From positions 67,222-131,221 of the forward strand of contig CAZABB010000001.1 of assembly GCA_964483625.1 (NCBI GenBank): a stretch of DNA of 64,000 nt, in the 5' to 3' direction. This stretch comes from an uncultured Planctomycetia bacterium (GTDB lineage Bacteria; Omnitrophota; Gorgyraeia; Duberdicusellales; 4484-171). Shown here piece after piece: positions 1 to 37,779 of this stretch. The number at the start of each line of letters is the position of its first letter. Position 1 is the stretch's first letter. A program made the position numbers and the translations under genes. The notes below the pieces were generated by a model. It was not told where the DNA came from and searched no databases. It was given only the letters and a program-made list of their open reading frames with translations.

Positions 1-661
1 CGACATACTGACCCCCATGCAATTGCCCCACATATAACACCAATTGTTTGTCGATTCTATATTTTTCACGTATCGGATTCCCCGAAACACCCGGATGGAA
101 AAGCATAAGGTCAGCTCCCACCGGCGCGTCGAAAATTCTTTCCGGAGGTATGCTGAGTCGTTCACATTCCAATTTCAGCCGCTGGCTGGCGCATGATACC
201 GTATCAACCAATCGCGGGATATTCCGCTCTAAGATATTTATAAAATGCCAAATCATAGTGCGCAGTATTCCCGGTTTGGTCGAAGCTTCGTATATTTTAA
301 CTTCCCAATCGTCCCAGTCATAATGGAGCGGTTTTTTTCTGAAAAATCCCGCGATAAGCGCCGGCAACACCGCATAATAAAAACATTTCTGAAAATGGAT
401 AATATCGGCAGCCCCGGCGATCCGATAGGTCTTTACGACATTGGCCAAAAGATGCCTTATCCCCAGCTTTCGGCATAAGGGAACCACGGTAAACCTTTCC
501 TGCGGTTGAAAAGACCGCTGATTTTTCCATTCCAGAGGAAAATAGATAAGCGTCACCTCTGAGCCGGTTTTCACGAATTCTCTGGCAAGCGACACGATAC
601 GGATAGTCCAGGGTTCCAAAGGGGAAAAAATATCGTGGGGATGGACCATCATTATATGCAT
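1..661 (-). CDS. Glycosyltransferase family 4 (GT4), 5'-complete and 3'-truncated by the window edge
   Basis: Reverse-complement translation from the ATG at 661 gives MHIMMVHPHDIFSPLEPWTIRIVSLAREFVKTGSEVTLIYFPLEWK..., a typical Glyco_trans_4 N-terminal domain. There is no stop before position 1. It is absent from the ORF track because it is truncated; the overlapping track ORF 318..668 is in a different frame. Confidence 0.65.
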   Translation of the reverse strand, partial: MHIMMVHPHDIFSPLEPWTIRIVSLAREFVKTGSEVTLIYFPLEWKNQRSFQPQERFTVVPLCRKLGIRHLLANVVKTYRIAGAADIIHFQKCFYYAVLPALIAGFFRKKPLHYDWDDWEVKIYEASTKPGILRTMIWHFINILERNIPRLVDTVSCASQRLKLECERLSIPPERIFDAPVGADLMLFHPGVSGNPIREKYRIDKQLVLYVGQLHGGQYV

Positions 662-770
662 TTCTCAACCTCCCGGGAATATCCGCGTCTTCTTTATTTT
701 TTTGACAGTCCAGAGAAGCGTATCCACCAGCATCGATAGAATTATCAAAAGGATTAAACGGCAGATTTTC

Positions 771-2471
771 TTAAAAGTAGCGATATAAATCATACAATTT
801 CAGTTCTTCAAGCGTCCGGATAATTGTTTGATGGTTGTCACAGTGATCGCAGTGCTCGTCATAGAGTACCTGTCCGTTAAGGAATTGAGCGTCCCGGTGA
901 CTTTTGAGATATTTTGCCTGACGCCGCCACTGCCAGTATTCGGGTGAATACCAGACTTCTTTAAAGGACTTCTTGTCCAGATATCCTACCGTACGCAGAT
1001 GACAGCAGAAACTCATGTCGTATTGAGCCGGAATAAGATTGAAATACCAGCCGATCGTACACCCGTGGTTTAAGAAGAAACCTTTTGACCAGGCTCCGGT
1101 CTGTTCATCATAATGGTTTAGTTGAAATTCAAAATTATCGACAAGTTCTATATTATGTTTCCGTAAGAGCCGAGTGATCTCCGGGATCATTTTTCTCATA
1201 GCATGGACTTCTTCCGGTTTTAACTGCAAGAATCGATTCATGACATCCAACCGGATCAGATAGAATCGTACCGCATCCGGCGCGATTTCAACATCCATCT
1301 TGGCCATCTCGACCAACTCATGATAGTTCATCGTATGGATCACATGGCTGACAATGAGGCGGGGATGCCGTCTCTCCTTTCGCCGGCGGATCCGCATTAA
1401 TCGTTTAAGGTTCTCTTTAATCGCATAAAACGTCTCCGCGGGTTGTGTGACACAGACCTCATGATACGTCCGGGCCGTACCGGCGGGGAAGCTACAGTAA
1501 ATCTCATTCACCCCTAGATCAATGATTTCCTCTGCTTTCGCCTTATCCAGAAGGATTCCGTTGGTAAAGAAGAGCACTCCCAGGTTTTTATTCCGGGCAT
1601 ACCGTAGCATCGGCATGAATTTCTCATACATCAACGGTTCTCCGTCACCCTGCAGGATGATTCCGTCAACCATCATGTCCGATGCGTCATCGATAATGGC
1701 TTTGAACCGTTCGAAATCAAACTTACGATTCAGGAACTCCTCCGGTTGCGTTACCGCCGGCGTATGCACCCAGCAATGCTGACAGCGGGAATTGCAGCGG
1801 TGAAAAGGATCGAAAACGATTGTCTGCGGCCCGATAAACACCTGTTCGGTAATGACGCCGAGCAACCGCAATAGATCTTTTTCTTTACCGGAATTACAGC
1901 GAGCATGCCGGGCTACTTTATCAATGATTTCTTCCAGTTGATCATCGCAGGATTCAATCTCGATGGGATACGATCGAATCGCATCCTGCATGCAAGCCAT
2001 ATATTCTCTGAAGTGTTCGGTCAAATCCTCTACGGGAAAAAGACGCAGAGAGGGAAGCCGTATCTCCCACGGCATCCCCAGAAGATCCAGGCAACACTTG
2101 ATAATCTTGGGAATACGGAAAAAATTGTATCTTGATACCCCGACTACAATACGTATCTCCCGATCTGTTTGCGAAGCGGCCCGGATTCTGTCGGTATTTC
2201 TTTGAAAGCTCCCGGTTTCTCCCGTTATCTTCTCATGGAGCTCAGCGAAATCTCCCCACAGATACACCTGAGAGCTGTCTTGAGCGGACGGGAGCACTCC
2301 TACCCCCTTGCTTTTTTGCCCGCACATACCTACCTTGCTATTTTTTCCGGTAATATTTTTAAGAAAAGCGGTTTTTTTGAATGAGTTAGGGAGCCACATC
2401 TTCATGCATTTCCTCCTTATAACAATTGACCATTCCCGCGCAGTTCTTTCGGCAGCGACGTATTCTCTCAC
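771..2471 (-). CDS. Radical SAM/SPASM-domain protein with a ~230-aa N-terminal extension; shorter paralog of the C-terminal ~560 aa of the 1056-aa protein at 21666..24836
   Basis: CNSRCQHCWVH cluster (C-x3-C-x2-C), GDGEPL, FFTNGILLD, C-terminal CCHLRT...CDHCDNHQ Cys-rich tail. The N-terminal region (VYLWGDF...IRIVVGVSRYNFFRIPKII...LRLFPVEDL) aligns to residues ~560-660 of the 1056-aa protein. The start is uncertain because of an 86-nt overlap with the upstream gene. Confidence 0.75.
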   Translation of the reverse strand: MREYVAAERTAREWSIVIRRKCMKMWLPNSFKKTAFLKNITGKNSKVGMCGQKSKGVGVLPSAQDSSQVYLWGDFAELHEKITGETGSFQRNTDRIRAASQTDREIRIVVGVSRYNFFRIPKIIKCCLDLLGMPWEIRLPSLRLFPVEDLTEHFREYMACMQDAIRSYPIEIESCDDQLEEIIDKVARHARCNSGKEKDLLRLLGVITEQVFIGPQTIVFDPFHRCNSRCQHCWVHTPAVTQPEEFLNRKFDFERFKAIIDDASDMMVDGIILQGDGEPLMYEKFMPMLRYARNKNLGVLFFTNGILLDKAKAEEIIDLGVNEIYCSFPAGTARTYHEVCVTQPAETFYAIKENLKRLMRIRRRKERRHPRLIVSHVIHTMNYHELVEMAKMDVEIAPDAVRFYLIRLDVMNRFLQLKPEEVHAMRKMIPEITRLLRKHNIELVDNFEFQLNHYDEQTGAWSKGFFLNHGCTIGWYFNLIPAQYDMSFCCHLRTVGYLDKKSFKEVWYSPEYWQWRRQAKYLKSHRDAQFLNGQVLYDEHCDHCDNHQTIIRTLEELKLYDLYRYF

Positions 2472-3450
2472 GGATGTCTTCGGCCTTTTCTGAATGCCAG
2501 AGGTCTCTTATGCTATCTTTTTTAACATTGCCTATTGATCCCATTTCACAACACAAATGAGCATCTCCTTGATGATTCACATTCAAAAATTTATCTCCTA
2601 AATAACAAGGGATATCTCTGACCGATTGCTGAGGGTTAGCGAAATATCGTTTGAACCGCTCAAGCTGGGCAATCGGGTTATCGATCCGATAGCCCGAATT
2701 TTTGCGGGCGATCAACGCGTCGATCACAGAATAAACCCGGGGAATATCCTTCGGCCAGAGGCTGTTGAACTCTTCCTTTCGATACCAAAACGGGTCGATA
2801 GGAACCATATTCGGCCGCATCAATGCCATAAATGATACGGAAATACCGTTGTCCTGAACCCATTCGGTCAGATCTAGGATACCTTCCAGATTCGGCCCCA
2901 TGATGATCGTCTGAAGATTAATATTTTTCAGTCTCCCCCGATAGTCATTCAAATAGCCGACTGCCTGTTTAGCACGAATACATGCCCCCTTTGTTCCCCG
3001 CAGGGTATCGTGTACGGTCTCATCCATACTATCGAGCGAAACGGGAAGAAAAGTCAATCCGGAATCGGCAACGCGCCGGGCGGCATCACGATCGAGAAGG
3101 AATCCATTGGTCACCATCGAGGAAAAGGGAAAGTCCTGTCTCCCGATAAATTCAATAAGTTCAAATATTCCCTGTCTCATCAGCGGCTCGCCTCCGGCGA
3201 TATTGATACCGAAAGAATCACTCGCCAACCCTTTTAGTTCCATGATAAACCGGGATAATTCCTCATTGCTCATTTCATTCCCGTGGCAGGAGCTTTTCCA
3301 GGTGTGGCACATCTTGCATCGAAACATACACCGTTGCGTTACTTCAATCACACAAAAATTCAATTTTTTCATTTCCCGTTTTAACATTTCTTTTTCAAAA
3401 CTTCGCCCTTTCCCGTTTAATCTTTTGGTTTCACTTTCAAGATATTCCAA
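2386..3450 (-). CDS. Radical SAM/SPASM-like protein, short tandem paralog (family A)
   Basis: CMFRCKMCHTW, GGEPLM, MVTNGFLLD, LDSMDETVHDTLRG, C-terminal CYLGD...HLCCEMGSIGNV...CRKNCAGMVNCY. Confidence 0.8.
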   Translation of the reverse strand: MEYLESETKRLNGKGRSFEKEMLKREMKKLNFCVIEVTQRCMFRCKMCHTWKSSCHGNEMSNEELSRFIMELKGLASDSFGINIAGGEPLMRQGIFELIEFIGRQDFPFSSMVTNGFLLDRDAARRVADSGLTFLPVSLDSMDETVHDTLRGTKGACIRAKQAVGYLNDYRGRLKNINLQTIIMGPNLEGILDLTEWVQDNGISVSFMALMRPNMVPIDPFWYRKEEFNSLWPKDIPRVYSVIDALIARKNSGYRIDNPIAQLERFKRYFANPQQSVRDIPCYLGDKFLNVNHQGDAHLCCEMGSIGNVKKDSIRDLWHSEKAEDIRERIRRCRKNCAGMVNCYKEEMHEDVAP

Positions 3451-5438
3451 AACCGTCCCATTTTATAAAAAAGACTGTTACGAATTTTATCATTATAATA
3501 TGCTGCTTCCTTCTGATTGCCGTCGATAGCCAATATGTCCCCGAAAACCTTCAGCGCTAATTCATAATTACGCTGACGGTAATATAGCTGCCCCAATCCC
3601 AGAAGGGATACCACGTCGTGAGGCACCTTTCCCAGAACATATTCGAACTCCTTCCTGGCCTCTCTCACACGGCCTTGAACCAGGAAACAAAGTCCGAGTC
3701 CTTGACGAGCATACACATTCTCATTCGTTATCCTTAATGCGTTCTGAAATGCCTGTACAGCCTCCGGAACCTGCTTCAACTCATAATAACAAACTCCCAA
3801 TTCCTGATGAATATGAGTATTCTCCGGTTCAAGATCGAGAGCCTTGCGGAACATTTCGATAGCCGGCCCGAATTGATTTTCCATCCGGTGGCATTTACCC
3901 AGCTCATAGTACGCCCAGCCGGCACAGGAAGGATTCCGAAGAACCTCATGATATTCCTGACGCGCCCGGGAGAGATCTCCTACCGCGGCATAACAAACCC
4001 CCAATTCCTGATGAATATGAGTATTCTCCGGTTCAAGATCGAGAGCCTTGCGGAACATTTCGATAGCCGGCCCGAATTGATTTTCCATCCGGTGGCATTT
4101 ACCCAGCTCATAGTACGCCCAGCCGGCACAGGGATTACTCTCCAGTATGAAACGATACTCCTGAGCTGCTTTCTCTAATTGATTTGTTGCCATATAACAA
4201 ATACCCAATTGGCGGCGCACTTCTTCACCCATACCGTTAAGAAGACTAAATTCCCTAATCGCCTTATCATGTTGTCCTAAGGCGGCGTAACACATCCCTG
4301 CATTTCTACGTACCTCTTGATTTCCCGGCTGGTTTTGCAGTATTTGCATAAACTCGCCGGCGGCGCGATCGAATTCCCTTCCCGCCATATAATATTCTCC
4401 CGAACGCAGATGGGAACGAAAATGATATTCATCCTCTTTTTCAAAGGCAACCATGAAGTTAATTACACAACATCGTCTTCCCGCCCCCCGCTGATTTATT
4501 TTGGCGCGAATCGCATCCGCTCTGGAAGAAAACCAGAGCGTCCGGAGATCATCCTTCTGAACATTCCCCAGTACATACCCACTGAGATAAATCGTACCTG
4601 TTTCATCCAAATCCAATATGTAATCGTGAATATGACAATCCGTTTCTTTCATAAAAACGTCCGGATCGACATAGTACTTTTTAAATGCTTCAAGCTGGGC
4701 GTAAGGATTCCAGATTTTAAAGCCTCTTTTCTTTAACATTATCAACTCGTCCATCACTCTGTGCAATGTAGCCGTATTTTGCGGCCACAGCTGATTATAC
4801 TCCGGCCTCCGGAACCAGTTGTTACGGGGATGAACAAGCCCGGTCTCCTGCAAAGCGAGGAAAGATATCTGTTCAAATGCGTCCTCGTTGTTTACCCAGT
4901 GTGTTAATTCAAGGATATCATCCAGATTCTTTTCCATGATAATGGTAAGGATCGTAAGCGCCAAATTATCTTTCCGGTTATGTTTATGCCTTTTAAGATA
5001 GTCTATAGCCCTCAGAACTTTCTCGAGAACGCCTTTTTCTCCCCTTAAGAAATCATGAACATGCGGTCGCAAACTTTCTAGAGAGATCGCCAACACATTC
5101 AACCGGGACGCGACGATACATTTGGCAAAATCTTCATCAATGAGGCAGGCATTTGTCGAGATAATCGACGTAAACCCTTTGTTGCCGATATAATCACAAA
5201 GATCAAGACACCAATCGATCAGAAACGGTTCCCCTCCCATAATATTTATTTCCAAAGAAGGATTTTCAACCAGATCCCGCAGTGAATCAATAAATCTTTT
5301 CGCCTGGTCAAAGGTGAGCCCGGGAGAATCCGAACCACATTTCCAAGCCGTACACATCTTACAATGCAACATGCAACGGTTGGACAACACAATATCACAG
5401 AATCTCGGGTAATGTATCGAAAACGAAACATCCTTCAT
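3417..5438 (-). CDS. Radical SAM (family A) fused to C-terminal TPR repeat domain
   Basis: N-terminal CMLHCKMCTAW, GGEPF, STNACLID, Cys-rich CVINFMVAF region. The C-terminal ~330 aa are TPR-like (YYELGKCHRMENQFGPAIEMFRKALDLEPEN, repeated exactly twice). Confidence 0.75.
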   Translation of the reverse strand: MKDVSFSIHYPRFCDIVLSNRCMLHCKMCTAWKCGSDSPGLTFDQAKRFIDSLRDLVENPSLEINIMGGEPFLIDWCLDLCDYIGNKGFTSIISTNACLIDEDFAKCIVASRLNVLAISLESLRPHVHDFLRGEKGVLEKVLRAIDYLKRHKHNRKDNLALTILTIIMEKNLDDILELTHWVNNEDAFEQISFLALQETGLVHPRNNWFRRPEYNQLWPQNTATLHRVMDELIMLKKRGFKIWNPYAQLEAFKKYYVDPDVFMKETDCHIHDYILDLDETGTIYLSGYVLGNVQKDDLRTLWFSSRADAIRAKINQRGAGRRCCVINFMVAFEKEDEYHFRSHLRSGEYYMAGREFDRAAGEFMQILQNQPGNQEVRRNAGMCYAALGQHDKAIREFSLLNGMGEEVRRQLGICYMATNQLEKAAQEYRFILESNPCAGWAYYELGKCHRMENQFGPAIEMFRKALDLEPENTHIHQELGVCYAAVGDLSRARQEYHEVLRNPSCAGWAYYELGKCHRMENQFGPAIEMFRKALDLEPENTHIHQELGVCYYELKQVPEAVQAFQNALRITNENVYARQGLGLCFLVQGRVREARKEFEYVLGKVPHDVVSLLGLGQLYYRQRNYELALKVFGDILAIDGNQKEAAYYNDKIRNSLFYKMGRFWNILKVKPKD
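3789..4132. repeat. Internal direct duplication (~140 bp identical copies at 3789..3928 and 3992..4132, 204-nt period) inside the TPR part of the rSAM-TPR gene
   Basis: Identical strings ...aacaaac(t/c)cccaattcctgatgaatatgagtattctccggttcaagatcgagagccttgcggaacatttcgatagccggcccgaattgattttccatccggtggcatttacccagctcatagtacgcccagccggcacagg occur twice. They encode an exact 49-aa protein repeat, a pair of TPR units. Confidence 0.9.
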
Positions 5439-5450
5439 TTCACACCTATT

Positions 5451-6455
5451 CTATCTAGATTCTTCTTCATACCAGCAATTGATAATATGATGGCAGTTCT
5501 TCGCACACCGGGCAATCTCCTCCCTTCGTTTTTCCGCCGCTGATGAATGCCAGATATCCTTAAAACCTGCCGTTTTTATATTGCCGATTCCCCCCATAAA
5601 CGGACACATATTGATTTCCCCTTCGGGATTGACTGAAAACGTTGTACCCTGGACCATATTACATACGTATCTTTTGATAAAATGGTCCGGATGTGAGAAA
5701 TATTCTTTAAAAACACTAAGCTGAGAAAGGGGATTTACAATTTTATACCCCTTTTCTTTCCGGCTGATAAGCTGATCAATCACTGAATCTGCCAATTCTG
5801 TGTCTTGCGGCCAAATCCAGCGATATTCTTCATCCTGATACCACCGTTCTCGAGGAGAAGTATGAAAAGGCTGCATGACTGCCTGTAAAAAAATATGGTG
5901 AATAGTGCCGTTCTGCTGTACCCAGTCGGTCAACGGCACGATATCCTCCATATTCGGCCCCATGATTACTGTATCGATGGCAACTTCAAGGTTTGTTTTA
6001 TGGCGTCTAAGCGACTCGATTGCTTCCATCACCCGCCGATAGCTTCCTTTTATTCCCCTCAAAAAATCATGAATTTGTGCGTCAGTACTGTATAACGTCA
6101 ATGCGATGTTGTTCAAGCCGGAATCACAAAGCTGTTTTGCTAATTCTTCGGTCAAATCATACGCACTGGTTGCCAAGGAGGTCCGGAAGCCCTGCCGGGC
6201 ACAATAACCAAGCAACTCAACAAGCATATCGGGTAATCGCAAAGGCTCTCCTCCTCCGAAGATTACACAGAAATCATCGTGAACATGCCCGGAGATGGAC
6301 TTCAAAAAGTCTTTCCATTGCTCAACCGACGGCCGGATAATGTTTTTCTCGTCGTTCTTCCATAGATGACACATCCGGCATCTTAATCCGCAACTTAATG
6401 TGAGTAACGCCACACAACTCTTTGGTTTCATACTTTTGACCGGACGAGAAATCAT
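5451..6455 (-). CDS. Radical SAM/SPASM-like protein, short tandem paralog (family A)
   Basis: CGLRCRMCHLW, GGGEPL, ATSAYDL, TLYSTDAQIHDFLRG, C-terminal CNMVQG...CPFMGGIGN...CAKNCHHIINCWY. Confidence 0.8.
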   Translation of the reverse strand: MISRPVKSMKPKSCVALLTLSCGLRCRMCHLWKNDEKNIIRPSVEQWKDFLKSISGHVHDDFCVIFGGGEPLRLPDMLVELLGYCARQGFRTSLATSAYDLTEELAKQLCDSGLNNIALTLYSTDAQIHDFLRGIKGSYRRVMEAIESLRRHKTNLEVAIDTVIMGPNMEDIVPLTDWVQQNGTIHHIFLQAVMQPFHTSPRERWYQDEEYRWIWPQDTELADSVIDQLISRKEKGYKIVNPLSQLSVFKEYFSHPDHFIKRYVCNMVQGTTFSVNPEGEINMCPFMGGIGNIKTAGFKDIWHSSAAEKRREEIARCAKNCHHIINCWYEEESR

Positions 6456-6477
6456 TTATCACCTCTGGTTGAAACTG

Positions 6478-7485
6478 TTATTCAGACGAAGCGACAGGAG
6501 GAAATGATTGTTCCTCTTGAAAAAAACAATTAACCATCGATTTACAATTACGTTTGCACTGGCGGATATGTTTACGAACATCTCTCGCTTTCTCCCCCAG
6601 CCACATATCTGGGAATCGATCGGAATGAATATTCCCAATCGGCGCAAGCGACTGGCATAAAAACACATCGCCGCGCGGGTTAATACTAAGAGAACTGTAC
6701 CCTAAATGACATTGACTACGTTTAATGGAACGTTCCGGATTATTAAAATAGGCCTTAAATGCCTTCAACTGTCCAATCGGATTGTTGATTTTAAACCGAG
6801 TTTCTCTTAAATTAATCAATTCATCAACAATCGAGTTTATTTTCTCAAAATTCTGCGGCCAGAGAAATTTAAATTCATCTTTTTGATGCCATTGATTGTC
6901 CGGTTCGGTATTAAAAGGCTGCATAACCGCCTGGAAACTGATCCCGTCAATCTCATTGCGGGAATCGACCCATCGGGCTAAATCAATGATCTCATCGAGA
7001 TTAGCCTCCATAATGGTCGTGACAATATTTATCTGAGGATATTCTCGTCTACACTGCGAAACAATTTCGATTGCCCGCAAAACTTGATCATGAAGTCCTT
7101 TTTTCCCACGCAAATCATCATGAATACGAGGATTAAGACTATCTAACGAAAAGACCAGCGTATTCAATCCTGAAGATATAATTTTTTCAGCTACAGTCCC
7201 ATCGACTAAAAATCCATTGGTCGTCATCGTAGTAGTAAACTCTTTCTCGGCAGCAAAATGGATAAGATCGAATATCCCTTCTTTTATAAGAGGCTCCCCT
7301 CCGACAAATTGTATTTGCACAGCACTACCGAAATATTCATACAGTTGCCGCAGAAATTCCTTCCATACGGCAGGCGGAGTAAATGATGAGTTATTCGGAA
7401 TCCTCCACATCCGACACATCTTGCAACGCAAAAAACAATTCTCGAGGAGGATAAGATCGCAATGTGTTAATTGTCGACTCCTCAT
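6478..7485 (-). CDS. Radical SAM/SPASM-like protein, short tandem paralog (family A)
   Basis: CFLRCKMCRMW, VGGEPL, MTTNGFLVD, SLDSLNPRIHDDLRG, C-terminal CHLGYS...FLCQSLAPIGN...CKRNCKSMVNCFF. Confidence 0.8.
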   Translation of the reverse strand: MRSRQLTHCDLILLENCFLRCKMCRMWRIPNNSSFTPPAVWKEFLRQLYEYFGSAVQIQFVGGEPLIKEGIFDLIHFAAEKEFTTTMTTNGFLVDGTVAEKIISSGLNTLVFSLDSLNPRIHDDLRGKKGLHDQVLRAIEIVSQCRREYPQINIVTTIMEANLDEIIDLARWVDSRNEIDGISFQAVMQPFNTEPDNQWHQKDEFKFLWPQNFEKINSIVDELINLRETRFKINNPIGQLKAFKAYFNNPERSIKRSQCHLGYSSLSINPRGDVFLCQSLAPIGNIHSDRFPDMWLGEKARDVRKHIRQCKRNCKSMVNCFFQEEQSFPPVASSE

Positions 7486-7492
7486 AATGATC

Positions 7493-8515
7493 TTACAGTA
7501 ATGTCTTATCGATAAAACAATTAATCCCGATGAGACAGATATGCCGGCAATGATAGATCTTCTCTCTCTGCAATTGCGCTTCTTTCGAATACCACAAGTC
7601 TTTTAGCTTTGCACTGCGCACATTACCCAAAGATGAGCCTTGGGAAGGACAGAGAAAAGCCTCCCCCGTAGGCCTTAGATATATGGAATAATTCCCCTGC
7701 CGACAACGTATTTTTTCCCCATACGTTTGAGGATTCTGGAAATAGTTTTTAAACATTTCCAATTGTTCCCGGGAATTCGCAATTTTATAACCAGCTTCCT
7801 TATATTTAATTAATGTGTCGATAATTTTCGCCATATCATCTTTATCATGCGGCCAGAGGTCACTCCATTGTTCTTTCTCATACCACTGAGCATCTCGAAC
7901 CGTGGCAATAGGCTGAGATACTGCCTGATAATAAATGGCACCTAAATATTTGTTATCCTGCATCCATTGAGCAAGCGGGATAAGGTCATCTTTATTTTTT
8001 TCCATGATGACCGTAAGAAGGCTGATACCCCGAGCCTTTACGGCGATCAGATAATCAAGAGCGCGCATAAGATGTTGATACGCTCCTTCTTTTCCTCTCA
8101 GTGAATCATGCGTGGACTCATTGAGGCTTTCTAGAGAAAGACTGATGACATCGAGCCCTGAAGCAACGATTTCCCGCGCTACGGACTTATCAATCAGAAA
8201 CCCATTGGTCACCATAGCCGTCGCGAATCTCTTCTTATGTGCATAGTGGACCAAATCGAAAATCCCCTCTTTGAGCAGAGGTTCGCCGCCGACGATATGA
8301 ATACGAATATTATCCGATCCGAACTCCTCGAGTGAGTCCACCACACGCATCCATTCTTCAATCGAGAGCTCTTCCTCGGCGGGCTCATTTTCCCAGAATC
8401 TACACATTTTACACCGGAAAAAGCAGCGTTCGGTTATTCCAATATCACAAAAAATCGGAGGTGTTATTTCCCCCTCGATACTATGTCTCTGAATTGATTG
8501 ATTTAAATCGCTCAT
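7493..8515 (-). CDS. Radical SAM/SPASM-like protein, short tandem paralog (family A)
   Basis: CFFRCKMCRFW, VGGEPL, MVTNGFLID, SLESLNESTHDSLRG, C-terminal CRQGNY...FLCPSQGSSLGN...CRHICLIGINCF. Confidence 0.8.
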   Translation of the reverse strand: MSDLNQSIQRHSIEGEITPPIFCDIGITERCFFRCKMCRFWENEPAEEELSIEEWMRVVDSLEEFGSDNIRIHIVGGEPLLKEGIFDLVHYAHKKRFATAMVTNGFLIDKSVAREIVASGLDVISLSLESLNESTHDSLRGKEGAYQHLMRALDYLIAVKARGISLLTVIMEKNKDDLIPLAQWMQDNKYLGAIYYQAVSQPIATVRDAQWYEKEQWSDLWPHDKDDMAKIIDTLIKYKEAGYKIANSREQLEMFKNYFQNPQTYGEKIRCRQGNYSIYLRPTGEAFLCPSQGSSLGNVRSAKLKDLWYSKEAQLQREKIYHCRHICLIGINCFIDKTLL

Positions 8516-9485
8516 CTTCCTGAAAAAAACAATTTACGATATTATGACAGGTCCGGGTACACGCGTACATCTCACATCGGGCCTTCTCTGCTGTCTCCGA
8601 AAACCATAATTCCTTTATGTCGTCCCGGATGACATTTCCGAGGGGCCGGCCGAAACAGCATAAGAAAATGTCTCCTTTATGATCGATATTCAAGACCGAA
8701 TCTCCCAGCCGGCATGTTTTATCGGAAACCCTTACACACGGGTTTTTAAAATACGCTTTAAATAATTCCAGCTGAGCCCGGGGATTGCTTACGACTCCGT
8801 ACATTTCTTTAAACCGGATAACCTCTTCAATAATCTCGCATAGTGTGGGGATATCGCCGGGCCAAAGAGAAGAAAATTCCGGCTGATGATACCAATCATC
8901 TTCGGTCGCGGTAAAAAAAGGACGCGCGATCGTCTGGAAATATACCGAATCCACATAAGGGGTATCTTTTACCCAACGGATATGCCGGAGAAGTTCACGA
9001 TAATTTTCTCCGGAGACGACCGTGATGATCTGAACGGGAAAATCCCGCCGGAATTGCTTGAGATATCGCAAACCGTTTACGGCACGGTCATACGCACCGG
9101 GTGTACCGCGCAGAGAATCGTGTGTTTGCCGGTCACAGGAATCAAGGGAGAGAGACACCTGGTCGACACCGGCAGCGACAATATCGCGAGCTTTTTTCTC
9201 ATCGAGAAGGAATCCGTTGGTGACCAGACCAACCTTAAATCCTTTCTTCTTGGCGGCAGAGATCAACTCGAACATCCCTGCCTCAAGTAACGGTTCGCCA
9301 CCGGTAAAAATGATCTCGCCTTGTCCGGACATCAGCCGGTTAAGATCGTCGATAACCTTAAGCCACGCTGAACCATCGAGACTTTCCGGATCGGGAGGAA
9401 GCTTCCACATATGACACATCTTACACCGCAGCATACAGCGGGTATGCAGTACGATCGAACAGGCGTTGGGAGCGTTCTTAACCAT
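8481..9485 (-). CDS. Radical SAM/SPASM-like protein, short tandem paralog (family A)
   Basis: CMLRCKMCHMW, TGGEPL, LVTNGFLLD, SLDSCDRQTHDSLRG, C-terminal CRLGDS...FLCCFGRPLGN...CTRTCHNIVNCFF. Confidence 0.8.
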   Translation of the reverse strand: MVKNAPNACSIVLHTRCMLRCKMCHMWKLPPDPESLDGSAWLKVIDDLNRLMSGQGEIIFTGGEPLLEAGMFELISAAKKKGFKVGLVTNGFLLDEKKARDIVAAGVDQVSLSLDSCDRQTHDSLRGTPGAYDRAVNGLRYLKQFRRDFPVQIITVVSGENYRELLRHIRWVKDTPYVDSVYFQTIARPFFTATEDDWYHQPEFSSLWPGDIPTLCEIIEEVIRFKEMYGVVSNPRAQLELFKAYFKNPCVRVSDKTCRLGDSVLNIDHKGDIFLCCFGRPLGNVIRDDIKELWFSETAEKARCEMYACTRTCHNIVNCFFQEDERFKSINSET

Positions 9486-9500
9486 AGACGGATTCTTTCT

Positions 9501-10483: not shown

Positions 10484-10486
10484 ATC

Positions 10487-11527: not shown

Positions 11528-11544
11528 CGGCTATTTTTGTTCGT

Positions 11545-12564: not shown

Positions 12565-12579
12565 TGCATTCTCTTTCGG

Positions 12580-25904: not shown

Positions 25905-28723
25905 TAGGGAGCAATGTTAATACATCCCTCAATACATCTTTCTCTGCCAGACAGCTCGCGAGGAAAGAGCGGTGATTGACATTGAAGGATCCGGGCTTGA
26001 AATAAATCGTCGGCGTTTTCGACAAGTGTCTCATATCCTCCATCATGGGAATAACAATGCAAGGTAACCGCAGGAATATATTGTCGTTCCAGAAGACCGG
26101 ATCTCATTTTGACTTTTTTCACTCCAATACGTGCCGATGCGTCTCCGCTCCATAATTGATCCCACCTCTTACCGTCGTGATGATTGAATCGATCAGGGAA
26201 TCGCTTATATGTTCCCCCCGGAGCAAACCATTCTTTATATTTATCCGAGAGCATAATATTCACCTGTTCTCTTTCTACTTCCGCTGTCCCTTCTCTCGTA
26301 TCCCATACCATACTTCTGACTTTCCACAAAATAGAATGTTCATCAACCACATGAATTTCCCATATCTGGCGGAGAGAAAGCCTCGGCCAATATCCTTGAG
26401 CCTCTATCCTGTTGTCGTTTTCGGATCTCACCTGCCACCGGGCATGAGACGAATCATTCCAAAACCCTCTTATAAAAAACGATGTGTAGAAACCGAGCCC
26501 TTTGGTACACTCTATACCGTTCCAGAAAATCTTTCCTTTCCCTGAAGCAAGGGCAAAACGTAATCTACCCACCTCTGCCGATACATCCTGCTTCGCTTGT
26601 TCGGGATTATGGGAAGAAATGTTTTCTTTCCGAAAAACTGGTGTACCGGCGCGGGAACTCACGTGTAATTTCCCTCGGAAAAAGCGATATCCACCGACCT
26701 GAGCATCAGGAAAATCGATGCCGATATACTGTAATTTTACCTTAGGTTCGGTTCCCCGATACGTATAAATGTAAGCGGCACATAAGGCGGCATCATCGCA
26801 GAGAAACGTCACGTTCGGCATCCGGAGATATTTCCCGGCTTCAGTTCCTCCTACTCCAATAAACGTATCCACATATTTATCTAATATCACCGAGCTCCGA
26901 TTCCCTCCCGTCAGATTTTTAAAATCGCCGCGCTGAGTCTCGCTAAACCATTCTCGATATTCATGACTGAGGATTACTTCCGCGATCTCCTCTTTTATCG
27001 ACAGCGATGTCTCTGATTGCATTGTTACTTCCCAGATAAGATCCTCCTCACTTTCCAGATAGAAACGCCATACCTGAGCAACTCCGGGAAGATTACGCCA
27101 GGAAACAGTAATACGCAACGTTGTCTCATCCTCTTTTTGCGCGTTCCATATAACGTGCTCTGGACTCCCTTCGATATCGTAGTGAATGCCATCGGAACGG
27201 AATACCGTATTAAAACCTGCCCCGGCAGTACACAAGATGTCCTGCCAGTAAAGCCGCAAGAGGAAACCGCTCCACACAAGGCAGAGTGGTCCTTTTTTTA
27301 TTGATAAAAAATCCTGATTGGTTTTCCGAGCCCGAAGGTAACGATCTAATTTTACCCGTTCTCCCTGAGAAAAAACTGAAATATTACCTTTGAAAATAGT
27401 CTTCTGTTCCAAAAAATGATCTTGAGGAAAATATTCATACAGCACCCCACGCCCTTTGAGTTCGGAACCCCGATTACAGATATGACACATCATCTCTGGT
27501 CCATCATCCACTCTTTCCCAGAGAATCGCCAGCGGCACTTTACCAACCTTCTCTTCGGCACTGAATCCCACGGCCTCATCGCGCACGTTCTCGGTCCGAA
27601 CGTCTTCCCATTCGACCGGATGCGGAGAAATCATCGGAAACGCTCCTTCTCCGGTATTGGTCATCCACCGTTTATATTCGTCGACAAATATAGCGGTAAT
27701 CTCGATCTTCTCTATCGGTGTCGGCGCGGCACATTGGATAATGACCTCCCAGAGAAACCTGTTTTCGGAGGATACTGTTATTTTCCATATTTGCACCAGG
27801 GGTAAATCCGGCCACTTCCCCGTCACGACTACTGTCGAGGAGTCCTCCGGAGACGGCTGTACTTCCCAGCGCGCCGTCATCGAAAGGTACTGACGTCCTT
27901 TGCTTATCAGCTTAACATACCCTGCCGGATAAGGAGTAAGCGTACGATCGTGCCATCTCAAGATAAGTCTTCCGTTATTCACCACAATGCCAAGATCGCC
28001 ATCCTGCCGACAAACGATACCCCCCTTATCCCCTATGGTCTCCGTATAATAATTACACACGCTCTCTATCGGACCATCTTTAATCAGCCGACCTTCTCTT
28101 AAGAAAATACCGCGGGCACATAATCTTTTAACCATTGCCAGATCATGCATTATAAAAAGAATCGTCTTACCCATCTCCTTTAACTGAAAAAGTTTATCGA
28201 TACATTTACGTTGCGCATAAAGATCTCCCACCATAAACGCATCGTCAACGAGTAAGATATCCGGATCCACGTGAATCGCGATAGCAAAAGCCAGACGCAG
28301 GGACATACCCTGAGAATAATTTCTGACCGACGCGTTGATGAACCGTCCCACCTCGGCAAAGCGAATAATATCCTCATACCGGACATCTATCTGTGACTTG
28401 GTCAGTCCGAATAGCGATGCGGTAAGATATACATTCTCTTTGCCCGTCAACTCTGACTGAAATCCCGCACCGATCTCCATGAGCGTTGAGACCGACCCTT
28501 TAACATCAATCTTACCTTTATCCGGCTTAAACATGCCGGAAATAAGTTTAAGCAGCGTGGTCTTGCCGGCGCCGTTCTCACCGATAATACCAACTGCCTC
28601 ACCCCGGTGCATATCGAAACTCACATCTCTCAGAGCCCAGAACATTTCCTTACTCACCTTGCCGGATTCTTTATACTCGACCCTGTATCCCAACCACACA
28701 TTTTTGAGAGAAATAACTTCCAT
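25904..28723 (-). CDS. ABC transporter ATP-binding protein, Wzt/TagH/KpsT-like, with ~700-aa C-terminal extension containing three W-rich repeat modules
   Basis: Walker A GENGAGKTTLLKLISG, signature YSQGMSLRLAFA, Walker B ILLVDDAF, H-loop IMHDL. The extension has three repeats (LILRWHDRTLT...WKITVSSENRFLWEVII...EYKRWMTNTGEGAFP; LRLYWQDILCTAGAGF...WRFYLESEEDLIWEVTM...EYREWFSETQRGDF; KIFWNGIECTKGLGF...WEIHVVDEHSILWKVRS...KYKEWFAPGGTYKRFP). Confidence 0.85.
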   Translation of the reverse strand: MEVISLKNVWLGYRVEYKESGKVSKEMFWALRDVSFDMHRGEAVGIIGENGAGKTTLLKLISGMFKPDKGKIDVKGSVSTLMEIGAGFQSELTGKENVYLTASLFGLTKSQIDVRYEDIIRFAEVGRFINASVRNYSQGMSLRLAFAIAIHVDPDILLVDDAFMVGDLYAQRKCIDKLFQLKEMGKTILFIMHDLAMVKRLCARGIFLREGRLIKDGPIESVCNYYTETIGDKGGIVCRQDGDLGIVVNNGRLILRWHDRTLTPYPAGYVKLISKGRQYLSMTARWEVQPSPEDSSTVVVTGKWPDLPLVQIWKITVSSENRFLWEVIIQCAAPTPIEKIEITAIFVDEYKRWMTNTGEGAFPMISPHPVEWEDVRTENVRDEAVGFSAEEKVGKVPLAILWERVDDGPEMMCHICNRGSELKGRGVLYEYFPQDHFLEQKTIFKGNISVFSQGERVKLDRYLRARKTNQDFLSIKKGPLCLVWSGFLLRLYWQDILCTAGAGFNTVFRSDGIHYDIEGSPEHVIWNAQKEDETTLRITVSWRNLPGVAQVWRFYLESEEDLIWEVTMQSETSLSIKEEIAEVILSHEYREWFSETQRGDFKNLTGGNRSSVILDKYVDTFIGVGGTEAGKYLRMPNVTFLCDDAALCAAYIYTYRGTEPKVKLQYIGIDFPDAQVGGYRFFRGKLHVSSRAGTPVFRKENISSHNPEQAKQDVSAEVGRLRFALASGKGKIFWNGIECTKGLGFYTSFFIRGFWNDSSHARWQVRSENDNRIEAQGYWPRLSLRQIWEIHVVDEHSILWKVRSMVWDTREGTAEVEREQVNIMLSDKYKEWFAPGGTYKRFPDRFNHHDGKRWDQLWSGDASARIGVKKVKMRSGLLERQYIPAVTLHCYSHDGGYETLVENADDLFQARILQCQSPLFPRELSGRERCIEGCINIAP

Positions 28724-28733: not shown

Positions 28734-29507
28734 TTACAGGTATTTCACAAGATCTTTCTCTTTGCGAATAAATACGGTCGCTCCCACGGTAAAACTCAGA
28801 ACGGCAAAGCCAAAAGCGAGAAGCCACATGAAAAAGGACCCCGGCTGAGAATGAAAAAGTAAGGATCGGAAAAGGACGATATAGCACGTACCCGGGTTTG
28901 CAACAAGGAGCCAGCGATAGGCCGAAGGGACCATCTCCAGAGGATAAAAAATAGGGGTCATCCAGAACCAGAACATAATACCTACGTTCAACATCTGGGC
29001 GAGGTCTCGGAAATATACGTCAATCACACTGAAAAGAAGAGATACCCCTAAAGCAAACATCAGGTAACATAAAAGAAGGAGCGGGAGATAAAATACACAT
29101 TTTACGATGGCGGGCGAAGCTAAAATGAATACCGGTAAAAGCACGATGAATCCGAAGAAAAAATTCATGAAATGCGCCATGACCACCGAAAGCGGAATGA
29201 TTTCCCGGGGAAGAACGAACTGCTTGATCAAATTGCTGTTTTGCCGCAGCGAGCCGGTGCTTTCACATATCGAATTTACAAAGAAAAACCAGGGTAAAAG
29301 CGCGCTGAGGACAAAAAGAGGAAACCTCTCGATCTGCATCTTGATGATGTGAGTGAACACAAAGGCGACAACCATCATAATTAACAAAGGGGTAAGCAAT
29401 GCCCAGGAAATACCCAGAAAAGAACCACAGTACTTATCACTAAGGTTCTTAATGATCATGCTTTTAATAATATCCCGGCGCGCTATGAGTGTTTTAATAC
29501 GATTCAT
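28734..29507 (-). CDS. ABC-2 type transporter permease (Wzm/TagG-like)
   Basis: 257 aa, six predicted TM helices, typical ABC-2 organisation. It lies immediately downstream of and is co-oriented with the Wzt-like ATPase (10-nt gap). Confidence 0.75.
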   Translation of the reverse strand: MNRIKTLIARRDIIKSMIIKNLSDKYCGSFLGISWALLTPLLIMMVVAFVFTHIIKMQIERFPLFVLSALLPWFFFVNSICESTGSLRQNSNLIKQFVLPREIIPLSVVMAHFMNFFFGFIVLLPVFILASPAIVKCVFYLPLLLLCYLMFALGVSLLFSVIDVYFRDLAQMLNVGIMFWFWMTPIFYPLEMVPSAYRWLLVANPGTCYIVLFRSLLFHSQPGSFFMWLLAFGFAVLSFTVGATVFIRKEKDLVKYL

Positions 29508-30864
29508 AGATAGCTTCTCGTTCGGATATTTCTTGAGCCAGGGCTCGGCTCTCAGAGATCACATCCTCCATCGACATATACCGCCAGCTCCCGTATCGTC
29601 CGCAGCAGCTGATATTATATTCTCTCAAGAAAGAAACGATCTTCTCCCGGGCCTGTCGGTAATTCATGTCATACAGAGGGTACCCGTACCGGATATCGTG
29701 GGTGTTTGAGACAACCACGCGGTCTTTTTCTTTCAATATCCCCACTCGTTTTAAATCGTCCATCACCTGCCGTACAATCGTACGTTTATTAATCGGCTTA
29801 TGACGAGAATAGGAAACTTCAACGTACATCGAAGACGCACCGGGCGGAACAAGCGAAGGAGAAAAATTGTGAAAGAACCCTGCCCGGAAGAAACAAATAT
29901 CTCTTGCCGGAAAATAAATCCAGTGGCAATGAGGCTGCATCGTGGGTTCAATGCCAATATTAATATTGAAAATCGAAACCCACCGGAGCTGACGGCCATA
30001 TCTTTTCATATCGCGGGGAACGTGACGGATCATTTTGAGCAGTTCCGGCAAAGGTAGGGTAGAAGCAAGATGATTGAATTTCATCATCCTCCCATCTTTA
30101 AACCGAACCGTCTTCTTGATGAGGTCTATTTCAGTCACCTCGCTCTTTACGGAGACGGAAGGAAGGGATCGGGAAAAAGTTTTGACTAATGTTTCTATGC
30201 CTCCCTGCCGAGGATACCAAAAAGACGCATTATATCCTAAATTCCGCCTGCTTTCATCAACGGTTCCCTCTACCACTTGGCGATACGTAGGAATAATCAC
30301 TAAGCCTTCGGCCCATTCATGAGAAAGATCTTCCAGCTTTACGTTCCAGAACTTCTCATTATATGGGCGCATGAAGTATTCGGTAACACCCTCACCAAAG
30401 TTTTTATGACTCCACTCGAAGAAATTACGGGGGATCAGATACTTAATCCCATTCGTATGAACCCGGATAAAATCAGTAAGACATTTTTTTATCACCGGGT
30501 GAGGCAATCCGTGGAGGTTAACCTGAAACGGATAGCGATGGATCCTGTCAAACGAATAGATGTAAGCATTCCGCTTGTGTTCGATTAGATTATCACCCAG
30601 AAGCTCTCTGATAAGGGCGAACGTATTCTTGTGCTTAAAATGAAGTAAATGACCACAGCAATCGAAGGTAAATCCACCAACGCGTTTCGATCGGCACAGG
30701 CCTCCTAGACGAGATTCTTTCTCAAATAGCTCATAGGAAACTCTTTTGTTCCGGAGGAAATACGCCAGGGAAACTCCGGCAAGGCCTCCGCCTAAAATAG
30801 TAACATCTGGATGCGCGTTAAAATCTGCTCTTCCCATGAGTTTTTTCTCTTTAAGAACCGGCAA
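29494..30864 (-). CDS. NAD(P)/FAD-dependent oxidoreductase, UDP-galactopyranose mutase-like (Glf/amine-oxidase superfamily)
   Basis: N-terminal dinucleotide-binding motif VTILGGGLAGVSLAYFL...EKESRLGG, FTFDCCGHLL motif. Size and motifs are consistent with the UGM-like flavoenzyme family. The specific substrate is not determinable. Confidence 0.55.
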   Translation of the reverse strand: MPVLKEKKLMGRADFNAHPDVTILGGGLAGVSLAYFLRNKRVSYELFEKESRLGGLCRSKRVGGFTFDCCGHLLHFKHKNTFALIRELLGDNLIEHKRNAYIYSFDRIHRYPFQVNLHGLPHPVIKKCLTDFIRVHTNGIKYLIPRNFFEWSHKNFGEGVTEYFMRPYNEKFWNVKLEDLSHEWAEGLVIIPTYRQVVEGTVDESRRNLGYNASFWYPRQGGIETLVKTFSRSLPSVSVKSEVTEIDLIKKTVRFKDGRMMKFNHLASTLPLPELLKMIRHVPRDMKRYGRQLRWVSIFNINIGIEPTMQPHCHWIYFPARDICFFRAGFFHNFSPSLVPPGASSMYVEVSYSRHKPINKRTIVRQVMDDLKRVGILKEKDRVVVSNTHDIRYGYPLYDMNYRQAREKIVSFLREYNISCCGRYGSWRYMSMEDVISESRALAQEISEREAIYESY

Positions 30865-31549
30865 AAAGATCCACCGTACCTTTTATTTTCGGCCTTCCCC
30901 GCGGTAAGGGATACAGTCTCCTCCCCGATTCTTCTTCCAGTTTTTTCACAAATTCTCGCGCCCCAAGCGGACGGCCGGTGAGGGTACATTTTCTGAGATC
31001 ATCGATGACCTTGGGATCTGTGTTATATTTAAGATATTGGCTCCACCCTTCACAGGACTCCCCAAGAAACGAAGAAAGATTTTGCAATTCGACTCCCGCG
31101 TTATTATCCTCACCGCTATGAACGCCGGCACTTGACCATTTCCAATGCCAGGGTTTTTCGACGATCTGCGCCCGCACCGGGTTTCTCTCAATATGCCTTA
31201 TAACCTCCCGGAGGTGCTTCTTATCGACAACACACGAATTAAATCGCCCCTGCCAGAGATGTCCTTTCGCTTTGATCCTTTTATGGAAATATTGAGAATA
31301 CCGCATATGGGTAGCATTGAACATCTTTCCTAACGAATTTTTTTCTCGAGGAATCAGAACAAAATGAACATGATTGGGCATTAAACAATAGGCGAGGAAA
31401 GAAACGCCGAATTTTTCACTATATTCCCGAACCCATAAAAGATACCGTTCCCGGTCGGCGTCGTCAAGAAATACATTTTGATTATAGTTCCCGCGCTGGG
31501 TAACATGGTGGGGAGATCCGACTTTTATGACTCTGGCAATACGGGGCAT
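30851..31549 (-). CDS. IS200/IS605-family Y1 (HUH) transposase, RAYT-like (COG1943); no recognisable IS ends, so possibly domesticated
   Basis: MPRIARVIKVGSPHHVTQRGNYNQNVF...CLMPNHVHFVLIP (HuH motif), followed by a Tyr-containing C-terminal region. No obvious terminal hairpins or REP array seen nearby. Confidence 0.7.
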   Translation of the reverse strand: MPRIARVIKVGSPHHVTQRGNYNQNVFLDDADRERYLLWVREYSEKFGVSFLAYCLMPNHVHFVLIPREKNSLGKMFNATHMRYSQYFHKRIKAKGHLWQGRFNSCVVDKKHLREVIRHIERNPVRAQIVEKPWHWKWSSAGVHSGEDNNAGVELQNLSSFLGESCEGWSQYLKYNTDPKVIDDLRKCTLTGRPLGAREFVKKLEEESGRRLYPLPRGRPKIKGTVDLFAGS

Positions 31550-31788
31550 AGATATCGAACGATGGAGCTAAGAATTGATAAGACAAGCGACAGCCCTCTT
31601 CAAGACATAGATTTAGTATATAATAAATGCTAAGTGTGTCAACAATATTAATGGTACCTGTCCCTATTTATTAAAAGGGTTTTCCTATTATTATATGTTA
31701 ATAGTACAGGGAAGAAGGATGTCATGGATATCAGAAAAAGCGGAATTTATAAATTTGAACCGCAACTAAAAAATACTATAATAAACCT

Positions 31789-36942: not shown

Positions 36943-37014
36943 ATTCTTTACCAACCCGTTCGACTTCACTCAAAAATAGCATTTGAGCGACGCCGGAATA
37001 CCAGTGAGTCTACG

Positions 37015-37779
37015 ATGGCAAAAATTACGTTCTTAGGAACCGCAGCGAGTGTTTCTTCCCGCGCCCGGGACAACACCTCATTGCTTTTCTCGGCAGACAA
37101 AAAATACGTTCTCATCGACTGCCCCGGCTCGATTGTCCATAAACTGGAAAAGATCGGCATTGATTTCCGCGCTCTCAAAAAGGTCGTCATCACCCATCCC
37201 CATATCGACCATTATTACGGACTATTTCATCTTATTCACGCCCAAAGCTATTTGAACAAACATATAACCATTTATGCCCGCCGGCCGACGATCCGGATCT
37301 TGAAGAAGCTCGTTTCCGACATGAAACTGAAAAAATCACATTATCCTCGTATCACATTCGATGAGGTGACCTTCAGACGTCCCTTCCTGAGGCGGCACAA
37401 GATAACGTTACGGGCAATTCCTAACAATCACACCGAAGGCTCCTTCGGCATACAATTCTCTTCCGGCGCAAAAAAAGTCCTCTATTCTTGCGATACCGCC
37501 CTTTCGGATTCGATCATTTCCGCCGCAAAAAGATGTGATTATCTTATCCATGACTGCACCGCATCTTCCCGCTACTTCAAAAAACATCCTCAATTATTCA
37601 GAGTACATACCAATGCCCGCGATCTGGCCGCGTTGGTCCGCAAGACGCGCGTAAAGAAACTCATCCCCGTTCATTTCCTTCTCCTGGAAAAAAACGAGAT
37701 GCGCCGCATCCGGGGCGAACTCATCCCCCTGGGAAAAAGAGTCCGAATTCCTTCTGATTTTGACCGTCTGATATTTTAG
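37015..37779 (+). CDS. MBL-fold metallo-hydrolase (RNase Z/ElaC-like)
   Basis: VVITHPHIDHYYGL (HxHxDH motif), TFLGTAAS N-terminus. Confidence 0.65.
   Translation: MAKITFLGTAASVSSRARDNTSLLFSADKKYVLIDCPGSIVHKLEKIGIDFRALKKVVITHPHIDHYYGLFHLIHAQSYLNKHITIYARRPTIRILKKLVSDMKLKKSHYPRITFDEVTFRRPFLRRHKITLRAIPNNHTEGSFGIQFSSGAKKVLYSCDTALSDSIISAAKRCDYLIHDCTASSRYFKKHPQLFRVHTNARDLAALVRKTRVKKLIPVHFLLLEKNEMRRIRGELIPLGKRVRIPSDFDRLIF

Follow-up and report, generated by a model that had tools for sequence, protein, structure and literature searches.

Gene content of the locus

The DNA analysed here, a stretch of 64,000 nucleotides from an uncultured Omnitrophota bacterium (assembly GCA_964483625.1, contig CAZABB010000001.1; hereafter the window), carries a 38-kb cluster in which genes for the assembly and export of a sugar polymer are combined with 19 radical SAM (rSAM) genes, as found by open reading frame (ORF) listing and Pfam scans. 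The minus strand holds 25 tightly packed genes encoding a Y1 transposase, a homologue of UDP-galactopyranose mutase (UGM), the exporter subunits Wzm and Wzt, the 19 rSAM enzymes, a 48-aa protein and a terminal glycosyltransferase (GT) of family GT4. These genes overlap or are separated by at most 22 nt, the sole exception being a gap of about 110 nt ahead of the terminal GT4 gene. The divergent plus-strand operon runs GT4-GT2-GT4-GT4-WecA-like and is followed by a metallo-β-lactamase (MBL) fold gene. The arrangement is not due to chance, as is seen from the tight packing and from its recurrence in many genomes. The sugar and exporter genes are listed here; domain X is described further below.

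1..661, minus strand: terminal GT4, 5′ part only (220-aa fragment), running off the window start (BLAST against other loci)
25904..28723, minus strand: Wzt-type ABC ATPase of 939 aa, a nucleotide-binding domain (NBD) and three X domains (27320-28015, 26624-27301 and 25907-26578)
28734..29507, minus strand: Wzm ABC-2 permease (PF01061; best NCBIfam match a galactan export permease, below cut-off)
29494..30864, minus strand: UGM-like FAD enzyme of amine-oxidase fold (best PDB matches eukaryote-type UGMs)
31789-32886, plus strand: GT4 (Pfam scan)
32883-33755, plus strand: GT2 (Pfam scan)
33733-34842, plus strand: GT4 (Pfam scan)
34805-35977, plus strand: GT4 (Pfam scan)
35965-36942, plus strand: WecA/MraY-family polyprenyl-phosphate sugar-1-phosphate transferase (Glycos_transf_4; PF00953, E 6e-30)

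A previous reading of the same DNA, made without database searches (the sequence-only reading), had described a plus-strand set of GT, WecA and MBL genes divergent from a set of UGM, Wzm, Wzt, about 20 rSAM and GT4 genes. Every element of that list was recovered, with the rSAM genes now counted as 19, one of them frameshifted, but the Y1 transposase gene had been overlooked. The label "UGM-like" also held, the FAD enzyme being a full-length homologue of eukaryote-type UGMs (Trypanosoma cruzi UGM 4dsg, E 2e-55 over residues 19-430; Aspergillus fumigatus UGM, E 1.6e-42), while its score with the bacterial UGM model TIGR00031 is far below the cut-off. With such a UGM homologue, the product may plausibly contain a furanose sugar. 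The WecA-like protein matches its NCBIfam model with 70 bits, below the equivalog cut-off, and is accordingly assigned to the family only. The terminal GT4 fragment is 47-55% identical to the GT4 encoded directly after the rSAM block in six loci of other genomes (L016, L030, L029, L042, L050 and L079). The GTs of the locus are cytoplasmic, and no Wzx flippase or Wzy polymerase domains were found among the window genes scanned. Besides UGM, Pfam scans revealed no nucleotide-sugar tailoring genes in the locus.

The radical SAM genes

The rSAM genes span positions 771 to 25904, and all 19 have an intact CxxxCxxC motif. All-against-all BLAST sorted them into four groups, here called family A (15 genes), family B (two), family C (one) and a single B12-binding enzyme.

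771..2471, minus strand: family-B rSAM/SPASM enzyme of 566 aa without domain X (PF04055; SPASM weak, below cut-off; motif CNSRCQHC)
2386..17938, minus strand: array of 14 family-A rSAM/SPASM-twitch genes (PF04055 and PF13186), starting at 2386, 3417, 5451, 6478, 7493, 8481, 9501 (9501-10483), 10487, 11545, 12580, 13664, 14738, 15777 and 16868
3417-5438, minus strand: in this array, family-A enzyme with C-terminal TPR, 673 aa
9501-10483, minus strand: in this array, frameshifted family-A gene with one frameshift near codon 92 (ORFs 10163-10483 and 9501-10253)
18122..19468, minus strand: family-C rSAM/SPASM enzyme of 448 aa, its position between the B12-binding rSAM gene and the gene of the 48-aa protein being conserved
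19465..21669, minus strand: B12-binding rSAM enzyme of 734 aa with a C-terminal X domain (19480-20136); best NCBIfam match HpnJ
21666..24836, minus strand: 1056-aa protein with domain X twice (24078-24695 and 23307-23990), then a family-B rSAM/SPASM part
24852..25904, minus strand: fifteenth family-A gene, between Wzt and the large rSAM gene

As in SPASM/twitch enzymes, the CxxxCxxC motif is combined with a C-terminal Cys-rich auxiliary-cluster domain. PF04055 was found in all, and PF13186 scored above cut-off in family A except the TPR-fused 3417-5438, as well as in 18122 and 21666, and weakly in 771. The family-A proteins, about 340 aa each and 29-47% identical pairwise within the window, share an invariant CxxxCxMC, beginning at residues 17-65, and five invariant C-terminal Cys; since canonical SPASM domains have seven, family A may be of either the SPASM or the twitch type. 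Family-B protein 771-2471 is 44% identical to the C-terminal 497 aa of 21666-24836. The frameshifted gene is either a pseudogene or the result of a sequencing error. Two neighbouring pairs of listed ORFs overlap by 92 nt (13664-13755) and 86 nt (2386-2471), and 12580-13755 and 771-2471 probably begin downstream of the first start codon listed.

None of the named rSAM families applies, as every match in an NCBIfam scan of ten of the rSAM proteins was far below the family cut-off. The best match of the B12-binding enzyme, HpnJ, scored 248 bits, which is below the equivalog cut-off of 577.6, and no hpn genes were found in the window.

Seven family-A genes (16868, 15777, 14738, 13664, 12580, 11545 and 10487) have collinear orthologues 43-78% identical in L008, L009, L011, L013, L031 and L047. 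Among themselves the paralogues of the window are only 29-47% identical. With ordered counterparts in other loci, each of these first seven small rSAM genes would seem to stand for a separate, conserved step, and 14738-15784 is the best conserved of the paralogues. For the distal paralogues (2386 to 9501) and for 24852 the matches elsewhere are just 39-53% identical, and these genes look lineage-specific; the best orthologue of 24852 (47%) is among three family-A genes located between Wzt and an X-containing rSAM gene in L008.

A domain shared by the exporter and the rSAM enzymes

The Wzm and Wzt genes, 10 nt apart, encode together an ABC-2 permease and a nucleotide-binding subunit of the Wzt/TagH class. 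The best PDB match of the Wzt NBD is the O-antigen Wzt of Aquifex aeolicus (8dku, E 2e-60), followed by TagH/TarH (TagH E 5e-54) and mycobacterial RfbE. The 700-aa C-terminal extension of Wzt is homologous to the 560-aa N-terminal part of the 1056-aa rSAM protein (BLAST E 1e-13), and a profile built from the Wzt repeats defined the common unit, domain X. Six copies were found in the window, three in Wzt (E 1e-58, 2e-48 and 4e-64), two in the 1056-aa rSAM protein (9e-26 and 7e-28) and one at the C-terminus of the B12-binding enzyme (8e-38). Domain X has the galactose mutarotase-like supersandwich fold, matching aldose-1-epimerase and glycoside-hydrolase accessory domains. The extension differs in fold from the O9a-type carbohydrate-binding module, which was not found on this Wzt.

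Among 1.84 billion representative proteins only 594 contained domain X (487 at E <= 1e-10), which argues that the domain is narrow and system-specific. The best ~140 listed matches have 2-9 copies per protein. No Pfam or NCBIfam model exists for domain X or for the rSAM families described here. Full-length relatives of the 939-aa Wzt make up at least 120 distinct 90% clusters, most of them from metagenome-assembled genomes (MAGs) of Omnitrophota, and the nearest apart from this Wzt itself is 43% identical.

Gene fusions in other loci join the same parts. In L079 a single 1915-codon ORF (upstream of 15959) has the order WztNBD-X-B12-X-C, with an rSAM domain of family C at its end, and GT2-rSAM fusions of about 640 aa are encoded in L006 (13934-15862) and L089 (14800-16725). 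Judged from the protein sequences, the exporter and the rSAM enzymes are physically tied, both by the shared domain of carbohydrate-binding fold and by the fusions in L079, L006 and L089.

Homologous loci in other genomes

Conservation of the gene arrangement was first assessed in loci anchored on Wzt, six of which were complete (L001, L003, L005, L006, L088 and L089). Wzm, a long Wzt and several rSAM genes were present in all six, with WecA-like and UGM-like genes directly upstream in five (all but L003). Locus L090 is cut after one further gene, which bears two X domains, and is compatible with the conserved order. The UGM-like gene is conserved beside Wzm in L001, L005, L006, L088, L089 and L090. 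A second scan, of species-representative genomes with the B12-binding rSAM enzyme as anchor, returned 80 loci, which were annotated by BLAST against the window proteins. In the 33 loci of at least 20 kb, Wzm and Wzt were found in 28, GTs in 25, domain X in 23, the UGM-like gene in 17 and WecA in 10. The recurrent order is GT4-WecA-UGM-Wzm-Wzt-rSAMs-GT4-GT4-GT2, and elsewhere the exporter and rSAM genes are bordered by orthologues of the GT operon of the window.

The comparison of rSAM and glycan genes in relatives, which the sequence-only reading had proposed as a check, therefore shows them linked in 6/6 complete Wzt-anchored and 28/33 B12-rSAM-anchored loci, and the unlinked rSAM array that would have spoken against a common pathway was not encountered. 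The same reading had expected the rSAM enzymes to be unprecedentedly numerous for such a pathway. In other loci, views of 22 kb already contain at least 12-14 rSAM domains, which places the window at the high end of a family trait but does not make it unique.

Most of the homologous loci are from Omnitrophota. In a second type of locus, X-B12(-B12) proteins take the place of family A together with three or four family-C units, which are frequently joined in proteins of about 1430 aa. The B12 catalytic part is found also in loci of Margulisiibacteriota and Deltaproteobacteria, and some loci outside Omnitrophota are without Wzt or X. Homologues of this catalytic domain (44-56%) with neighbouring SPASM rSAM genes were seen in Woesearchaeota, in other archaeal MAGs and in the cultured Heliobacterium mobile DSM 6151 (L024, L033, L040, L076 and others).

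Accessory genes vary between loci (L001/L005 6984-9193; L003, L006, L088), some having a carbamoyltransferase and an SxtJ-like gene between UGM and Wzm, and GDSL lipase/esterase genes occur inside the rSAM block of other loci. In L089 (3004-5718 and 12714-14849) genes for PMT_2 (ArnT-like) and Wzy_C (WaaL-like ligase) proteins lie upstream and a GH44 gene directly follows Wzt; these genes hint at attachment or trimming of the exported glycan.

The best named matches of the window CarB are all from Candidatus Omnitrophota, the nearest being 85% identical (GCA_016935525.1). In this nearest relative (L087), just as in the window, pyrF lies beside MBL, WecA, GT4 and GT4 genes (19936-23234), all four encoded on the other strand. 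The 10-kb view of L087 stops inside the GT operon.

Proposed pathway

The locus probably encodes a Wzm/Wzt pathway for a polyprenyl-linked and probably furanose-containing cell-surface glycan, which would be heavily tailored by the rSAM enzymes at the cytoplasmic face before export. The glycan pathway with embedded rSAM tailoring that the sequence-only reading had put forward is supported by the linkage of the genes, by the shared domain X and by the Wzt-rSAM and GT2-rSAM fusions. In the proposed mechanism the WecA-family enzyme would start the chain on polyprenyl phosphate and five or six cytoplasmic GTs would elongate it, the furanose sugar probably being supplied by the UGM homologue. At the inner membrane face the glycan, most likely still bound to lipid, would then be remodelled by the fifteen twitch/SPASM paralogues, the three larger SPASM enzymes and the B12 enzyme. 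The two largest rSAM enzymes would hold the glycan with domain X, and Wzt would recognise with it the finished, modified product that is to be exported, in the manner of the carbohydrate-binding module of O9a-type Wzt. The 48-aa protein would be a free-standing copy of a cationic amphipathic helix that in other loci is fused to the enzymes, and probably acts in docking or at the membrane surface. We can only infer the role of the glycan as rSAM substrate, the timing of its modification relative to export and the types of reaction; candidates would be C-methylation by the B12 enzyme and, for the other rSAM enzymes, oxidation, epimerisation, deoxygenation, decarboxylation or cross-linking.

The substrate of family A was sought by a PDB profile search and by a fold search with an AlphaFold2 model (pLDDT 85.8). 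The top structural neighbour of the model was BlsE (cytosylglucuronate decarboxylase), a sugar-acting rSAM enzyme of the same size, closely followed by SkfB, SuiB, MoaA, CteB, anSME and DesII, all with 15-21% identity, and the twitch domain of BtrN matched the family-A C-terminus. With BlsE as the nearest structure, a sugar substrate for family A would be compatible with the predicted model, which is no proof of it.

Several observations weigh against the proposed pathway. The profile and fold searches fail to separate sugar, peptide and lipid substrates for family A, which resembles the peptide-modifying SPASM enzymes (SkfB, SuiB, CteB and anSME) about as well as the sugar-modifying ones, and the family-A enzymes are without domain X. 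The supersandwich fold of domain X is also found in the YidC P1 domain, in PnsB2 and in a PBCV-1 capsid protein, for which no sugar role is known. No ligase, polymerase or chain terminator, such as a WbdD-like kinase or methyltransferase, was found in the window. The nearest relative keeps the GT-WecA block, but no close orthologue (>55%) of the window Wzt or of the first GT4 was found in the protein collection, and the exporter and rSAM block may thus be variable between close relatives. Finally, the conserved 48-aa protein has only a putative role in this pathway.

Soluble nucleotide sugars or lipids as possible rSAM substrates

Instead of the polymer, the rSAM enzymes and especially those of family A could act on soluble nucleotide sugars, providing unusual donors for the GTs, so that only the X-bearing enzymes touch the polymer. 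The lack of domain X in family A fits such a role, BlsE and DesII, which are nucleotide- or nucleoside-sugar enzymes, are among the nearest solved relatives, and the GT2-rSAM fusions would suit the channelling of a modified donor to a GT. However, fifteen serial rSAM enzymes would serve merely 5-6 GTs, and the dehydratases, aminotransferases and reductases usual for nucleotide-sugar tailoring are absent according to the Pfam scans. Domains of glycan-binding type are located on both the enzymes and the exporter, and the Wzt-rSAM fusions put rSAM chemistry at the exporter itself. This explanation, though the foremost of the alternatives, is considered unlikely.

A lipid target is more doubtful still. 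Here the polyprenyl carrier or a glycolipid tail would be modified by methylation, cyclisation or C-C coupling, and the product would be a modified glycolipid. HpnJ (248 bits), the best NCBIfam match of the B12-binding enzyme, which also matches the lipid B12-rSAM family TIGR04072, would be in line with this, as would the tetraether synthase GDGT-MAS among the PDB matches of family A and the GDSL lipase genes in some loci. These matches to lipid enzymes are, however, far below the family cut-offs and no better than those to unrelated rSAM enzymes. The module common to enzymes and exporter has a carbohydrate-binding and not a lipid-binding fold, and the locus is devoid of genes for isoprenoid or fatty-acid synthesis.

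The 48-aa protein

A small gene lies between the family-A array and the family-C gene.

17960..18106, minus strand: small48, conserved basic 48-aa protein, with a ribosome-binding site and homologues in other loci

This ORF, which the sequence-only reading had singled out as the only precursor candidate, is real, as it is preceded by a ribosome-binding site and has stand-alone homologues in eight other distinct loci (L001, L005, L007, L008, L011, L012, L013 and L088; L002 duplicates the L001 contig). Small48 is missing from L003, L006, L009, L010 and L089. The protein has 14 Lys and Arg against 3 Asp and Glu, with a high helical hydrophobic moment over residues 12-33, and its conservation is uniform and confined to residues 1-34. 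In L088, where the gene lies between Wzt and the first rSAM gene, a different tail is present and the only conserved Cys is lost with the original one. The N-terminal motif of small48, about 30 aa long, recurs in more than 20 loci as the very first segment of X-B12 fusion enzymes, and some B12 domains have it close to their C-terminal ends. Small48 is therefore probably an unfused version of a helix that serves in docking or at the membrane surface.

Small48 could alternatively be the precursor of a ribosomally synthesised and post-translationally modified peptide (RiPP), whereby the rSAM/SPASM enzymes would modify it or another peptide, the ABC-2 system would export the product and the GTs would glycosylate it. 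SPASM enzymes are typical RiPP maturases, and the small ORF is conserved amid such enzymes and co-occurs with the family-C rSAM in loci of the window type. Yet the uniformly conserved residues 1-34 and the replaced tail of L088 give no leader/core pattern, and the clear precursor that was to have contradicted the glycan pathway was not found. Pfam scans of the 20 rSAM ORFs detected no RiPP recognition element (RRE) or PqqD domain (E < 0.01), no protease or peptidase-type exporter was found by the Pfam scans, and the transporter is of the Wzt/TagH class. The RiPP model was rejected as the main explanation on the absence of leader/core and RRE, on the fusion of the motif to enzymes and on the loci that do without small48, and it is regarded as very improbable.

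The divergent junction and neighbouring genes

The features at the junction of the two operons and at the end of the plus-strand operon are as follows.

30851..31549, minus strand: Y1 (IS200/REP-associated-type) transposase, first gene of the minus-strand operon (PF01797; NF047646 63 bits, cut-off 80)
31550..31788, no strand: divergent intergenic region, the only sizeable gap, with the two strongest promoter-like matches found between 20001 and 38500 (18.5 kb)
37015..37779, plus strand: MBL-fold (RNase Z-like) hydrolase, not recurring in homologous loci but present beside WecA in L087

The transposase gene overlaps the start of the UGM-like gene by 14 nt and is absent from the other homologous loci, and it is probably an insertion outside the pathway. 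It sits exactly where the order of the window departs from the canonical GT4-WecA-UGM-Wzm. As the GT4-WecA part of the window is found in the divergent operon with the transposase at the junction, an inversion or local rearrangement at this position is suggested. That the glycan locus and the rSAM array are unrelated operons, brought together by chance or transposition, might be read from this transposase and from the deviating gene order, but is hardly credible and already contradicted by the linkage in dozens of divergent genomes, the shared domain and the fusion proteins.

The two promoter-like sequences, one per strand, are at 31642-31615 on the minus strand (11/12) and at 31755-31782 on the plus strand (10/12), and are consensus matches only. 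The totals in the promoter and terminator scans were at chance level, and all that is suggestive is that the best two promoter-like sites both fall into the divergent gap.

The MBL hydrolase, counted as part of the locus in the sequence-only reading, is present but probably lies outside the system, being RNase Z-like and without counterparts in the homologous loci. Past 37798 follow pyrimidine-biosynthesis and other housekeeping genes. Among these a 383-aa membrane GT2 is encoded at 39808-40959 on the minus strand, between pyrK and a TauE-like gene, with no gene at that place in L087. It was not assigned to the system, as its similarity to the GTs of homologous loci is generic (24-29%).

Possible implications for surface glycans

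If the glycan is the substrate of the rSAM enzymes, the system would represent a new route to glycan diversity, post-assembly radical editing, which extends over at least 120 Wzt clusters and about 600 X-domain proteins. A large set of rSAM activities would become available along with a tractable substrate pathway encoded beside them, an ABC exporter would be shown to carry a new carbohydrate-recognition domain, and something would be learned about the cell surface of Omnitrophota, whose members are very small and poorly understood bacteria. Because the order of the paralogues is conserved, stepwise reconstitution is testable. We would give an even chance to the wider proposal of an unknown class of surface glycans in Omnitrophota and some other ultra-small or uncultured lineages, in which up to about 19 rSAM enzymes, acting in order, would rewrite simple lipid-linked chains once these are assembled, a carbohydrate counterpart of RiPP maturation, with the mutarotase-like module as both a tether for the enzymes and the exporter's check of complete editing.

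Comparison with known systems

No description of the system was found in the full-text literature searched. To our knowledge, rSAM chemistry on carbohydrates has been a matter of single enzymes acting on small molecules and not of a multi-enzyme system wired to a polysaccharide exporter. The nearest pathways are those for galactofuranose-containing glycans, Klebsiella O1/O2 D-galactan I and mycobacterial galactan, which employ WecA, UGM/Glf, cytoplasmic GTs and Wzm-Wzt and complete the assembly before export. They share with the locus a WecA-family initiator, a UGM homologue, cytoplasmic GTs, an ABC-2 permease and a Wzt-class NBD. The galactofuranose pathways are without rSAM enzymes, whereas the locus has a eukaryote-type UGM and a Wzt with three mutarotase-like domains, and no ligase or terminator in the window. 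In the Wzt of O9a E. coli, Raoultella and Aquifex, a C-terminal carbohydrate-binding module recognises the capped chain end. The Wzt described here resembles these in having an NBD followed by a C-terminal all-beta domain that would plausibly select the finished glycan.

Family A, with its compact rSAM proteins (about 340 aa), resembles the carbohydrate-acting enzymes BlsE, BtrN and DesII in having a Cys-rich auxiliary-cluster domain at the C-terminus and in lacking an RRE. These enzymes are just 16-20% identical to family A, however, and act singly on small molecules, in contrast to a row of 15 paralogues encoded next to a polymer exporter. HpnJ, an enzyme of hopanoid cyclitol-ether synthesis, presumably rearranges a lipid-linked aminosugar. 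The B12 enzyme of the window has the B12-binding and rSAM architecture of this class B rSAM enzyme, with an extra C-terminal X domain and no hopanoid genes nearby. Clusters for RiPPs made with rSAM/SPASM enzymes (sactipeptides, ranthipeptides, streptide and PQQ) likewise combine multiple SPASM enzymes with a small conserved ORF and an ABC transporter. The locus differs from these in having no RRE, leader/core precursor or protease, in its transporter of the Wzm/Wzt type, in its conservation together with WecA, UGM and GTs and in its far higher number of rSAM enzymes. The scaffold of the system is a known kind of pathway, and what is new is the battery of rSAM enzymes built into it, the mutarotase-like module that enzymes and exporter have in common and the fusions between the two.

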